Below are positions 45,916-50,524 of a stretch of 64,000 nt of DNA, piece by piece. Below the pieces are notes generated by a model. That model was not told the origin of the DNA. It ran no database searches and was given only the letters and a program-made list of their open reading frames with translations. Location: assembly GCA_010356995.1 (NCBI GenBank), contig ML996690.1, positions 685,420 to 749,419 of the forward strand, written 5' to 3'. Made by a program: the position numbers and the translations under genes. Within the stretch, counting starts at the first letter, position 1. Each line of letters opens with the position of its first letter. Origin of the DNA: Trichodelitschia bisporula (taxonomy: Eukaryota).

Positions 45916-47249
45916 AAGAAGGGACTGGGATTGACGGACACGATCCAGCGGCTCGACAATCAGTCGCCCGGCCTATATGGCCGGCCGAGAAGCCAGAATA
46001 TTGCAATCGCATTGTGCCATGGGCCATCCACATTGCAAAGATAAGGGCTGCCGGGTAACAATCAAGACGCATCGACGTTACCTTCTCCATTAAGCTGTGC
46101 CGACAGGGCATCGCCGCTGGCATGGTTCGCCTGGACATCCCCAGCAGCGGACGGCTGTGTTTGATAGCTAATCTCGACTATTGGTTGCGACCGAGTCGCT
46201 TGTTACAAGTATCGCAATTAGCAGGTGCCGCAAAGTGGTCACGGCATTGGCAAGCCTGGGCTGGATGGGGGCTAGAAGGCAGGATCGGAGTGCTCTGGGA
46301 ACGGAGGTCGGTCTGCCTATCGCGTGTCGTCACTGAATATTGTTCCGGTGCCAAGTTGACTGGGGTCCATCGGAGCGATCTTGGAACTTTCCATTCCGCT
46401 CGAGTTCTACGGATGTACTCCTCTCCCCGACGTCTCCCTTTGTGTCTCTACAGCCCTTGGGCAGATCATCATGCTGGACACTTCTGGCCTTCCATATTTA
46501 TCTCTTGGCCATCTGTTTCCTGGTTCTCGGCCGCTTCTCTCGATAAGATATCCAGATGTAACGGTGCTGCTGTGAAAGCAAACGTTGAGACGCGTACCGG
46601 CGCCGATTCGAGTTTCGTGCACCCAGCAGTTCGCTCACAACCTTCAATCCGTCATCGAAGCTTTAGGATGGGGCATGCTGTGGGATGTCTGTCGCCGTCT
46701 TCGTGCTACCGGCTGGAGCTCTAAATATCGTGAGCTCTGGTGAAGCTCCGAACACAGCCTACCCGAGAACCGACCATCAGCACCGTCTCCTGCAAGAACT
46801 GGATAATGCGGATTGATGAGGTTGTCGGGAGATCGATCGCTAGAAGATACAAAAATCAATTTTGAAAGAGCCGTTCCCTAACCGATCGGAAAGACAATCC
46901 ATGTGTCGAGATGCCCACCAGGTGAGCACGTTGGGCCGAAATAAATCTAGAGCCGTCCGCCGAACGCCCTGCTTGGATAGATGCCTCGCAATTGGCAAAG
47001 GACGTGCAGATGGCGCTCGCTGTAGTTCGCCATAATGTGTAGCAAGACTCGAGAATCCGAAAATCAAATAATGGCTTCCACTCGAAGCACGCAATTGACG
47101 CCATACTTGGTGTGACGCGGGACCCGGCAAACTAGGCTGTCGATGTCAACATCTAAGCCAACTGCGAAGAATTGGCAGGATTCACGACTAAATATATACT
47201 GCGTGGAGACTTCCATCTTTGCACGATCGATTTTGCAAAGTGAGCAATC

Positions 47250-49501
47250 ATGCTATATCAATCGCTTCTGGTAGGTCTGCCACTTTGGTGCGCACTCGTA
47301 CTCGGCCATGGCGAGGAATCCCAGCAAGTCCTCATGCCGCCTGGCGCCGCGAAGACCTCAAGACCCAACATTGTCTTCATCCTCACCGACGACCAGGATT
47401 TACACATGCACTCCCTTGACTACACTCCTTTGACCAGGAAGCATTTCCAGGAACAGGGGACGTTCTTCTCAAAGCACTATTGCACTGTTGCTGTCTGCTG
47501 CCCTTCACGCGTCAGCCTTTGGACAGGCAAGGCTGCCCATTCGACCAATGTAACTGGTACGTATCTGCTTTGTTACCACTTCAGATATTGACCTCGGAAA
47601 TGCTAATTGCCAACAATAGACGTAAGCTTCCATTGGTATGCTGATTTAACAATATTTAACCGAGTCGTCCGGCGGAATAGGTGTTTCCTCCCTACGGTAC
47701 GTATCCCTCGCTTCTTGAACTTGATGTATGAATATTGACGGCCACCCAGGCGGCTATCCCAAGGTCGGTAACTCCTCTTCTATGGCAACTCCGCATACGA
47801 CCAGTGATAAGCTGACATTTCACTCGAACAGTTCGTTAGTCAGGGTCTGAATGAAAACTATCTTCCTATCTGGCTCCAGGAAGCCGGGTACAACACGTAC
47901 TACACCGGGTATGTCTCACCGACCTGTGCTAGATTTAAACGCTGTTGCCACCATGTCTAATCAAGGACATGTGCCCAGGAAGCTGTTCAATGCTCACACG
48001 GTGGAGAACTACAATAAGCCTTACGTCAAAGGTTTCACCGCCTCGGACTTCCTTCTGGACCCCTTCACATACCAGTATCTGAATGCAAGCTTCCAGCGCA
48101 ACACGGATCCGCCAATCAACTATGCCGGAAACTACAGTACGGATGTCCTCGCTCAAAAGGCCTATGGTCTCCTTGATGAAGCCGTTGAGGCCGGCAAGCC
48201 CTTCTTCCTCACGGTCGCCCCCAATGCTCCCCATAGTAACGTGGGCTGGGACGGAGACTTGGATGAGGTACCCGATAAAGACCATCTGCCGGACAACTTT
48301 ATCATGTCCGCCCCAATTTCAGCTGAGCGACACAAGGATCTTTTCAAGGACGTCAAAGTCCCGCGCAGCGCGAACTTCAATCCCGAACACGTAGGTTCAC
48401 GCTTCCCTGCCTTTCTGTATTTCTAACCAAGAAGCCTTCCGGCGCCGCCTGGGTCCGTGAGCTCCCGCGCCAGTCGGAAGAAAACGTCGAGTACAACGAT
48501 CATTTCTACCGACAGCGGTTGCGGGCTTTGCAGGCCGTAGACGAACTGGTGGACGGACTCTTCGAGCGCCTCGAGAAGCACGGACTTCTTGACAACACCT
48601 ACATCTTCTACACAACGGACAACGGCTACCACATCGGTCATCACCGCATGCAGCCGGGTAAGGAGACCGGCTACGAAGAAGACGTCAATATCCCCTTGTT
48701 CGTCCGCGGACCGGGTATCGCCGCCGGTGCTGTCTCCGAGCTCGTCACTACGCACACCGACCTTGCGCCTACCATCATTAGCCTTATCGGTGCAGAGCCT
48801 CGCCCGGACTTCGATGGGCTAGCTATTCCGCTGTCACAGGATGAGATCCGTGCGGCGAGTGATGGCTGGCACGAGCATGTCAACATTGAGTATTGGGGAT
48901 TCGCCATGGGTGAAGGCAAATTTGACCGAGGATTTCATACGAACAACACGTGGGCTTCCCCAGTGATTCACCAAGCTGAGCTATACTGATGAGACGTAGG
49001 TACAAGGCTCTGCGTGTCATCGGCCGCGACTACAACTTGTACTACAGCGTAAGTCAATGGCAGAAGGGTCGTCCTGTAGTCACTGTTCAAAGGAAAACTA
49101 ATCGTCATCAGGTATGGTGCCACGGCGAGCACGAGCTCTACGACCTTAGAAACGACCCCGGCCAGCTCAACAACCTCCTCCGCACCAGCGGCGCCATTGA
49201 ACCCACTCTCTTTTCCTTCCCTATCGCTAAAGTAGCCTCTCGTCTCGACTCCCTCCTCTTCCTACTCAAGTCCTGCAAGGGCATCGTGTGCACTCGGCCA
49301 TGGAAGGCACTTCACCCAGGCGGCGGCGTGAACACGCTGCAGCATGCGCTCGCGCCGGAGTTTGACGCCTTCTACGAGGGCGAGCAGCTGCGTGTGCAGT
49401 TCTCGCGCTGTGAGGCGGGGTACTTGCTTGATGCGGAGGGGCCGCAGTGGGAGGACAAGTTGGCTTATCGCCAGGGAGTGAAGTGGTCGGAGTGGGTTTA
49501 G
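47250..49501 (+). CDS. Secreted arylsulfatase (Cys-type)
   Basis: Signal peptide; PNIVFILTDDQD, CCPSRVSLWTG (formylglycine motif), GKLFN, DNGYH and PGKE.GYEED motifs. Nine exons including microexons of 2, 16 and 14 nt. Confidence 0.93.
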
Positions 49502-50524
49502 GTCGGCGGTTCAGCCTCCCTTGTCGTTTTCCGACAGGGAAGGGCAATTGGCGATAACCTCGACTTCCATGGCCATGCAAATGATTGAAAGACGCCGTGG
49601 TTATCCTGCTATATAACTTTTTTTGGATAGTAAAAATCGAATCTGCAGATCCGATTTTGTGGAACCGTTGCGTTGACATCACATTCTGTGAGGTTGTGAA
49701 TGTGATGACTAAGCAGCCTGACGACATCTCATGCCGAGGGTCCCTTCCCTCCAACTTCTCTCAAGATTCTCCCAGATCAATACTTCACCTCTTCGACTCA
49801 TCCATCAGCGATCCCAAACAATACACCATCATTTTCTCCCCCGCAAGTGGCGAAGCCGGGATGCCGAACCATGCATGTCGTCATCCGCGAGCATGTTGGC
49901 AAATATCGGGCTAGACCGGGGCCGGACAAGGCTGAGGCGCTAAACAGCAAATCCACGACATCTCCGCGCAGCGGCATCCACCATGCGCTTGAGAATCGAG
50001 CATCCAGGCCCACCTTCTCTCCTCCGACACCGGGGACATAGCTGGTATTTTCCGCTATCTTACCCGACGCGCTGGTCGGGTCTTCCTCTATAGTGGAAAT
50101 GCCCGCGCAGGTCTGCAGGACGACCCCTGGTATGTCAGAGGAGATATGCATGCCCACACGCGCTCGAGCCCCGCCACCTAGATATACACGCGCCGAAGAG
50201 TCTTCTTTCCGAGGCCGTGATTGCCATTGATCCCCATGCCGTTCTATCGGAGACGAGCCCGGTGGCGAGCACGTCTGGCCGAGTACCCGCACATATGTCG
50301 GGCGGAACACAGACTAGACCGGCAGGAGCGGCGCAGGCATGCAGTGTGGTGGCGGAATGGTGGATTCGCGTGGCTGATCGAGCTTTTGCGTTTTGCGGCC
50401 CGGCAGCGTGGGTCTACGCCGGGGAATATAAGCCTCGAGTGGGAGTCAGAGGGTTGGCGAGGGGAAAAGGATTGACTATGAAAGCTGTGCGGGCGTAGGC
50501 TGACGATTGATCAACAATTGACCG

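Follow-up and report, generated by a model that had tools for sequence, protein, structure and literature searches.

Gene structure of the arylsulfatase locus

We analyzed a gene within a 64,000-nucleotide (nt) stretch of the genome of Trichodelitschia bisporula, a member of the Dothideomycetes, order Phaeotrichales (assembly GCA_010356995.1, contig ML996690.1, positions 685,420 to 749,419). This whole stretch is referred to as the window; its G+C content is 50-65%, and all coordinates below are counted from its first letter. The region starting at 47250 holds a plus-strand gene of nine exons whose eight introns are all of the GT..AG type and 44-70 nt long. Its product is assigned by homology to the fungal arylsulfatase group, the name being taken from database annotation of homologues. 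Within this gene, the conserved motif TNVTDVxPPYGGYPKF is interrupted by four introns inside 32 nt of coding sequence, and the exons between these introns measure only 2, 16 and 14 nt. Given a start at 47250, the coding sequence comprises 1782 nt and 593 amino acids. Exons and introns were assigned as follows.

47250 to 47556, plus strand: exon 1, 307 nt; signal-like N-terminus, LTDDQD, CCPSR and ...HSTNVT, plus the G of the Asp codon; Pfam Sulfatase match with E 7.6e-10; RNA over 47393-47556
47557 to 47619, plus strand: intron 1, 63 nt, GTACGT..AATAG, phase 1; branch-like GCTAAT at 47602-47607; spliced out of the RNA contig
47620 to 47621, plus strand: exon 2, AC, 2 nt; bases 2 and 3 of the Asp codon G-AC; RNA contig reads ACTG-AC-GTGTTT
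47622 to 47680, plus strand: intron 2, 59 nt, GTAAGC..AATAG, phase 0; likely branch site TTTAAC at 47655-47660; AG at 47663-47664 unused; spliced out of the RNA contig
47681 to 47696, plus strand: exon 3, 16 nt, VFPPY plus G; from the exon join and the RNA contig
47697 to 47749, plus strand: intron 3, 53 nt, GTACGT..CCCAG, phase 1, between PPYG and GYPKF; from the RNA contig
47750 to 47763, plus strand: exon 4, 14 nt, remainder of the Gly codon, then GYPK; from the exon join and the RNA contig
47764 to 47831, plus strand: intron 4, 68 nt, GTCGGT..AACAG, phase 0; branch-like GCTGAC at 47811; from the RNA contig
47832 to 47908, plus strand: exon 5, 77 nt; from the exon join and the RNA contig
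47909 to 47978, plus strand: intron 5, 70 nt, GTATGT..CCCAG; RNA joint
47979 to 48390, plus strand: exon 6, 412 nt; from the exon join and RNA contigs
48391 to 48434, plus strand: intron 6, 44 nt, GTAGGT..GAAG; RNA joint from 48390 to 48435
48435 to 48949, plus strand: exon 7, 515 nt; from homology, Pfam search and RNA contigs
48950 to 48999, plus strand: intron 7, 50 nt, GTGGGC..GTAG; a loose contig end of 10 letters before 49000 equals 48940-48949
49000 to 49048, plus strand: exon 8, 49 nt; from the RNA contig
49049 to 49111, plus strand: intron 8, 63 nt, GTAAGT..TCAG; RNA joint
49112 to 49501, plus strand: exon 9, ending with the stop codon at 49499-49501; from the exon join and RNA contigs

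The Pfam Sulfatase family (PF00884) matched three exon translations with E-values of 7.6e-10, 2.3e-05 and 3.7e-23, the second of these scoring 24.3 bits and thus falling slightly below the 25-bit cut-off. Exon 1 carries both the N-terminal DDQD metal site, as LTDDQD, and the CxPxR formylglycine motif, as CCPSR, so that domain, motif and metal site together place the protein in the sulfatase family. Identity between the window protein and 29 named fungal arylsulfatases was 60-67%.

Anatomy of the exon chain

The coordinates and letters that the initial annotation had given for the four introns and the 2-, 16- and 14-nt exons proved exact throughout. Joining the exons restores the motif as claimed, with the translation HSTNVTDVFPPYGGYPKFVSQGL, and the Asp codon is indeed split, its G lying at 47556 and its AC at 47620-47621. 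The dinucleotide sits in the context AATAG-AC-GTAAGC (47615-47627) and is the sole one of eight AC dinucleotides in 47557-47680 with AG before and GT after it. Both introns flanking it are complete and, at 63 and 59 nt, normal compared with the range of the gene. Each has a donor, a branch-like site and an acceptor of its own, as had been proposed. In case of intron 1, GCTAAT lies 13 nt ahead of the intron end with no AG in between, and a CTRAY-type branch-like site was found in seven of the eight introns, with intron 3 having TTGAC. AC therefore shows these features of an ultra-short exon: no more than 3 nt between AG and GT, intact introns of normal size, bases that are present in the mRNA (see below), and a contribution to both the reading frame and a conserved residue.

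A spliced-alignment script supplied only with a consensus peptide, BLOSUM62, the GT..AG rule and an intron penalty returned precisely these four introns on the window. We further asked how readily such an arrangement arises in shuffled sequence. When the 124-nt stretch was shuffled 20000 times, an AG-AC-GT string with at least 40 nt on each side turned up 188 times, and once if a branch-like site and a good donor were required as well.

Transcript evidence for the 2-nt exon

Contigs of one sequencing run, X1, which holds 0.64 of the sampled words of 47250-49500, were aligned to 47000-49700. The run type is on record merely as a guess ('RNA?'). The contig in record 1 is 421 nt long, has a depth of 7.4, shows no mismatches to the window and aligns to 47393-47556, 47830-47907 and 47978-48126. 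Between 47556 and 47830 it holds 30 letters that were placed on neither side, ACGTGTTTCCTCCCTACGGCGGCTATCCCA. The aligner had assigned the last two letters of the 14-nt exon, AG, to the same two letters at the end of intron 4 (47830-47831), and the 30 extra letters together with this AG are equal to AC followed by the 16-nt and the 14-nt exon. The mRNA at the junction hence reads ACTG, AC, GTGTTTCCTCCCTACG, GCGGCTATCCCAAG and TTCG. This is the cDNA string that the initial annotation had predicted; AC is present, and the frame is not restored through other splice sites.

The X1 contigs lack all eight introns of the gene. Further joints define the introns 47909-47978, 48391-48434 and 49049-49111, and the depth bins 47637-47727 and 47728-47818, which lie wholly within introns 2-4, showed no depth. 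In case of a second run, X2, nothing aligned to 47000-49700, which is no proof of absence.

Based on the genomic signals and the transcript sequence, we hold with high confidence that the 2-, 16- and 14-nt segments are exons, presumably constitutive ones, separated by four self-contained U2-type introns, AC completing the Asp codon and keeping the frame. Several points weigh against this interpretation. The junction is read from a single contig of a single run whose type is a guess. Logan contigs drop rare variants, so minor isoforms that skip AC or lack neighboring residues could escape notice. There is no RNA over 47091-47363, and the start codon ATG at 47250 is thus a presumed one. Splicing intermediates were not seen, so sequential removal of the introns, in whichever order, is a presumed one. 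Finally, our scan for relatives gave nothing nearer than a locus (L078) with 77% identity over the N-terminal 232 residues, where it has no introns.

The same facts, one contig at a depth of 7.4 from a run of guessed type, would be compatible with AC being an assembly or sequencing artefact of X1. We consider this extremely improbable. The 30 extra letters correspond to three microexons that lie apart in the genome, follow the correct order and are each flanked by AG and GT, and the listed pieces contain no other letters and no gaps. For an artefact to explain this, it would need to supply just those two bases by which both the frame and the conserved Asp are restored.

The deposited protein model

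A 172-residue exon translation is 100% identical to a deposited protein, P0001, named 'Arylsulphatase [Trichodelitschia bisporula]'. P0001 has Glu in place of the Asp and reads TNVTEVFPPYGG, which can be obtained from the window DNA only by joining 47556 to 47679. Were the deposited model correct, a single intron at 47557-47678 would be removed, the protein would contain TNVTEV, and there would be no 2-nt exon. The join from 47556 to 47679 does reproduce the deposited sequence, but it implies an intron of the GT..AT type with a noncanonical end and turns intron 2's own AG into exon sequence. At the disputed G of P0001 the transcript base is C. Since the RNA contig reads AC and not AG, with no other difference in any listed piece, the Glu model is wrong.

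Comparison with homologues is in agreement with this result. In the 68 homologues that have the CCPSR motif, TN(V/I)T is followed by Asp in 62 cases and by Asn in 5, Glu being found in P0001 and in none of the 67 others. Asp is likewise present in nine further homologues without an exact CCPSR, of which eight have CCPAR and one lacks the segment. In the structure of a bacterial GlcNAc-6-sulfatase, 5g2v, the residue aligned with the window Asp is the Asp of FTD. Taken together, we regard it as exceedingly unlikely that the deposited model is the correct one: the public gene model misses the 2-nt exon and has a wrong Glu at a conserved Asp position. The error likely arose when an aligner matched the AC of the transcript to the genomic AG at the cost of a single mismatch.

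P0001 begins with MPPGAAK, using the ATG at 47334. A start at the in-frame ATG at 47250 would extend the protein by 28 hydrophobic, signal-like residues of the kind seen in orthologues; the RNA contigs stop short of this ATG. P0001 probably lacks 28 N-terminal residues. The present analysis thus corrects the public model by replacing Glu with the conserved Asp, removing the implied GT..AT intron and, probably, lengthening the N-terminus by 28 residues.

Frame consequences and alternative splice joins

Skipping of AC was claimed to shift the reading frame, and it does, the first stop appearing at codon 115. Retention of intron 1 results in a stop at codon 114 and retention of intron 2 in a stop at codon 139. 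One alternative join keeps the frame: the donor GTAACT at 47550 combined with the acceptor at 47680 removes the nine bases encoding VTD, introduces no stop and yields ...HSTNVFPPYGG.... GTAACT is an acceptable donor, and this deletion could in principle represent the main or a regulated isoform. However, the only transcript contig here contains GTAACTG-AC, the three residues are kept in 68 of 68 homologues with the motif, and the intron would be 131 nt long compared with 44-70 nt for the eight introns of the gene. That the VTD-deleted form is the main or a regulated isoform is therefore judged highly improbable.

The initial annotation had also suggested that the microexon acts as an on/off switch. 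According to this idea, AC would be skipped under sulfur-replete conditions, giving a frameshifted mRNA prone to nonsense-mediated decay and adding a layer to transcriptional control, so that unproductive skipping would tune arylsulfatase output to sulfur supply. The stop at codon 115 is what such a device would call for, and a microexon switch has been reported for Xlr2 of Trichoderma virens (PMC11121469). The sole isoform in the X1 contigs is the fully spliced one with AC included, as seen in one run, under a single growth condition, and in contigs that are blind to rare forms. Folding of the RNA at 47540-47850 was no better than that of shuffled sequences (z 0.23; 55 of 100 shuffles folding equally well or better), and no unusual structure that might draw the splice sites together is thus found near the exons. 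We consider a regulated switch very unlikely, and the same applies to tuning by sulfur supply; the observed transcripts offer no support for the proposed on/off function.

Proposed splicing of the exon chain

Short fungal introns are recognized across the intron, with the first usable AG past the branch point being taken, and this fungus presumably splices by intron definition. In the mechanism we propose, each of the 53-68-nt introns would be recognized as one unit, its donor pairing with whichever branch site comes next downstream and with the first AG that can be used. Such nearest-signal pairing for each intron would include AC automatically and without any recognition of the exon itself. 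Since only 2 nt separate the intron-1 acceptor from the intron-2 donor, two spliceosomes presumably cannot assemble there together, and one intron would need to leave before the other. The first excision would then give the remaining splice site an exon of normal size.

Introns 1 and 2 could be removed in either order. The intron-2 donor is preceded by GAC (positions -3 to -1) regardless of whether intron 1 is still present, and the sequence hence imposes no order. Of the ordered, intron-definition splicing put forward in the initial annotation, removal of one intron after the other remains plausible, while a fixed order does not follow from the sequence. A model of one-after-another intron removal has likewise been put forward for Arabidopsis APC11, which has a 1-nt exon (PMC4674806).

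The branch site of intron 2 is most likely TTTAAC (47655-47660). The AG at 47663-47664 would then be too close, leaving the AG at 47679-47680 to be used, in agreement with the RNA. A branch at GCTGAT (47640) would predict an acceptor at 47664, which the RNA does not use. In sum, the signals in the DNA and the single mature mRNA lead us to infer sequential removal, this choice of branch site and constitutive use of the exons. With four introns inside 32 nt of mRNA, the gene represents a compact natural substrate with which to study minimal intron spacing and the order of removal.

Relation to known ultra-short exons and complex introns

Two neighboring introns at such close distance invite comparison with several known arrangements. 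In recursive splicing, AG-GT ratchet points, which can be regarded as zero-length exons, break up the very long introns of animals, and no bases are retained from them. The present locus is similar in that an acceptor directly precedes a donor and the first splice leaves the 5' splice site to be used next. It differs in that two coding bases are retained and the introns are only about 60 nt long. Zero-length-exon recursive splicing is referred to in PMC4674806 and treated in PMC6224609.

Stwintrons, to which the locus had been likened, are complex introns in which one intron, the internal one, is inserted into the donor, branch or acceptor sequence of another, the external one, and nothing stays in the mRNA (PMC5639578, PMC8469720, PMC12403724). 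Two U2 introns in closest neighborhood and, by the mechanism proposed here, consecutive splicing reactions are shared features, and stwintrons are known in Pezizomycotina (PMC5639578, PMC8469720). If the locus were a stwintron or another nested complex intron, the order of removal would be compulsory and fixed. Here, both introns are intact, each having its complete donor, branch-like site and acceptor, neither interrupts a splice signal of the other, and AC stays in the mRNA, while nothing of a stwintron does. The observed mRNA is obtained from the two adjacent introns and from none of the nested GT..AG combinations. The likeness to stwintrons was accordingly dropped, and we assign a nested intron with fixed order a practically negligible probability.

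Ultra-short exons are rare but have already been described in fungi and plants. In Coprinopsis cinerea, annotation from long reads contains 13 exons that are 1 nt in length, 57 with 2 nt, spread over 50 genes, and 27 with 3 nt, and their omission often creates a premature stop (PMC12230235). As in the window, these are ultra-short internal coding exons in a fungus. Coprinopsis is, however, a basidiomycete and other genes are concerned, whereas the 2-nt exon reported here heads a chain of three microexons in the arylsulfatase gene of a Dothideomycete. A further parallel is provided by the CYP621A P450 genes of Fusarium, which contain a 1-nt exon (G) that is kept in 20 orthologues and supported by reads from the SRA database (PMC12940212). 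Both cases involve an ascomycete and an exon bounded by AG and GT in a conserved motif that is essential for the frame, was missed by automatic annotation and has public RNA support. The Fusarium exon differs in being 1 nt long and conserved, while the 2-nt AC of the window is common to none of 71 loci (see below).

Arabidopsis, Drosophila and humans also have exons of 2-5 bp, as stated in PMC12940212. In plants, microexons of 1-15 nt are conserved and widely mis-annotated, including adjacent exons of 5 nt and 12 nt in rice (PMC8831610). Together with APC11 (PMC4674806) they resemble the exons described here in being mis-annotated and, presumably, in their constitutive use and in the involvement of intron definition with sequential removal. 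Plant microexons are old and conserved, while the 2-nt exon of the window looks lineage-specific.

Supplements aside, we found no paper joining arylsulfatase and microexons, and among the matches listed for 2-nt exons none concerned this gene. Literature matches listed for Trichodelitschia were taxonomic or ecological, judged by title and the start of the abstract. The present gene extends the short list of ultra-short exons known from fungi by one of 2 nt that has RNA support and comes from a filamentous ascomycete, and it leaves the understanding of how such exons work unchanged.

Intron positions in relatives

A comparison of intron positions among orthologues had been suggested together with the initial annotation. 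We scanned metagenome data with an alignment of 30 orthologues and obtained 80 loci, of which 71 contained the CCPSR anchor, several near-duplicate contigs with identical peptides being included in this number. The first Cys codon of CCPSR served as the reference point for positions, which are given in bases; introns 1 to 5 of the window gene lie at positions 61, 63, 79, 93 and 170. Introns were distributed over the loci as follows.

Position 79 (between PPYG and G, window intron 3): intron in 51 of 71 loci
Position 51 (between HNT and NVTD): intron in 2 of 71 loci (L054 and L079)
Position 161: intron in 2 of 71 loci
Position 164: intron in 1 of 71 loci (L054)
Positions 61, 63, 93 and 170 (window introns 1, 2, 4 and 5): intron in 0 of 71 loci

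The site of intron 3 is thus widespread, while both sites flanking AC were found in none of the loci. The closest locus, L078 (77% identity over residues 2-233), is intronless in that stretch. Since the arrangement is not conserved in the 71 relatives, an old regulatory device is argued against. The position of intron 3 appears to be old, judging by its distribution, and introns 1, 2, 4 and 5 look like gains in this lineage. Gain is preferred because the alternative, losses everywhere else, is less parsimonious. With relatives lacking three of the four introns in the motif, the gene may be a case of recent intron gain. Whether there was a lineage-specific burst of such gains around the ancient intron at 79, inside the invariant motif (positions 61, 63, 79 and 93), is a proposal to which we give an even chance.

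In a second look, 120 open reading frame fragments similar to exon 1, out of 394 matches, were inspected for the point at which they diverge from the protein. Divergence occurred after PPYG in 96 fragments, after HNT in 10, after WTGKT in 3 and after TNVTD(V/L) in 2. Eight continue through, and one is only a Ser variant. Divergence after TNVT plus G, the pattern of the window, was seen in none of these 120 of 394 matching fragments.

Intron positions in this stretch vary between lineages. The intron between HNT and NVTD sits 10 nt upstream of window intron 1, and the group showing it includes the fragments most similar to exon 1 (for example P0121, P0122 and P0127). The intron of L054 at position 164 lies 6 nt from window intron 5. 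Fragment P0207 reads TNITDV, followed by unrelated residues and a stop, with the Val codon as the only GT-compatible donor. This lineage may have an independent intron at position 63, the same site as window intron 2.

The orthologue models P0074, P0077, P0078 and P0082 carry insertions precisely between PPYG and GYPKF, which suggests an unspliced intron at position 79. P0044 and P0098 are also among the public models with an insertion or a start at this point, P0098 lacking the CCPSR segment. These models look like annotation errors in other fungi.

As to the origin of the additional introns, both GTACGTATC and ATATTGAC occur in introns 1 and 3, and there is a resemblance between the 3' part of intron 1 and an inner part of intron 2. 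Duplication of introns was set aside as unsupported, the similarity being matched by 20 of 300 shuffles for introns 1 and 3 and by 22 of 300 for introns 1 and 2 (65 and 39 of 500, respectively, with softer gap costs). The best pair among the eight introns was matched by 8 of 300 shuffles, or 18 of 500 with softer gap costs, so that none of the pairs convincingly exceeded shuffled sequence. A search for introner-like copies, using blastn-short with the eight introns against the 64-kb window and the 80 loci, returned only matches of 9-18 nt with E-values of at least 0.068.

Two further observations concern the remainder of the gene and its upstream neighborhood. Intron 6 is merely 44 nt long and the donor of intron 7, GTGGGC, is weak; transcript contigs support both introns. 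Upstream of the arylsulfatase gene, a transcript contig with a depth of 3.17 covers 47000-47090 and may represent the end of a neighboring transcript.

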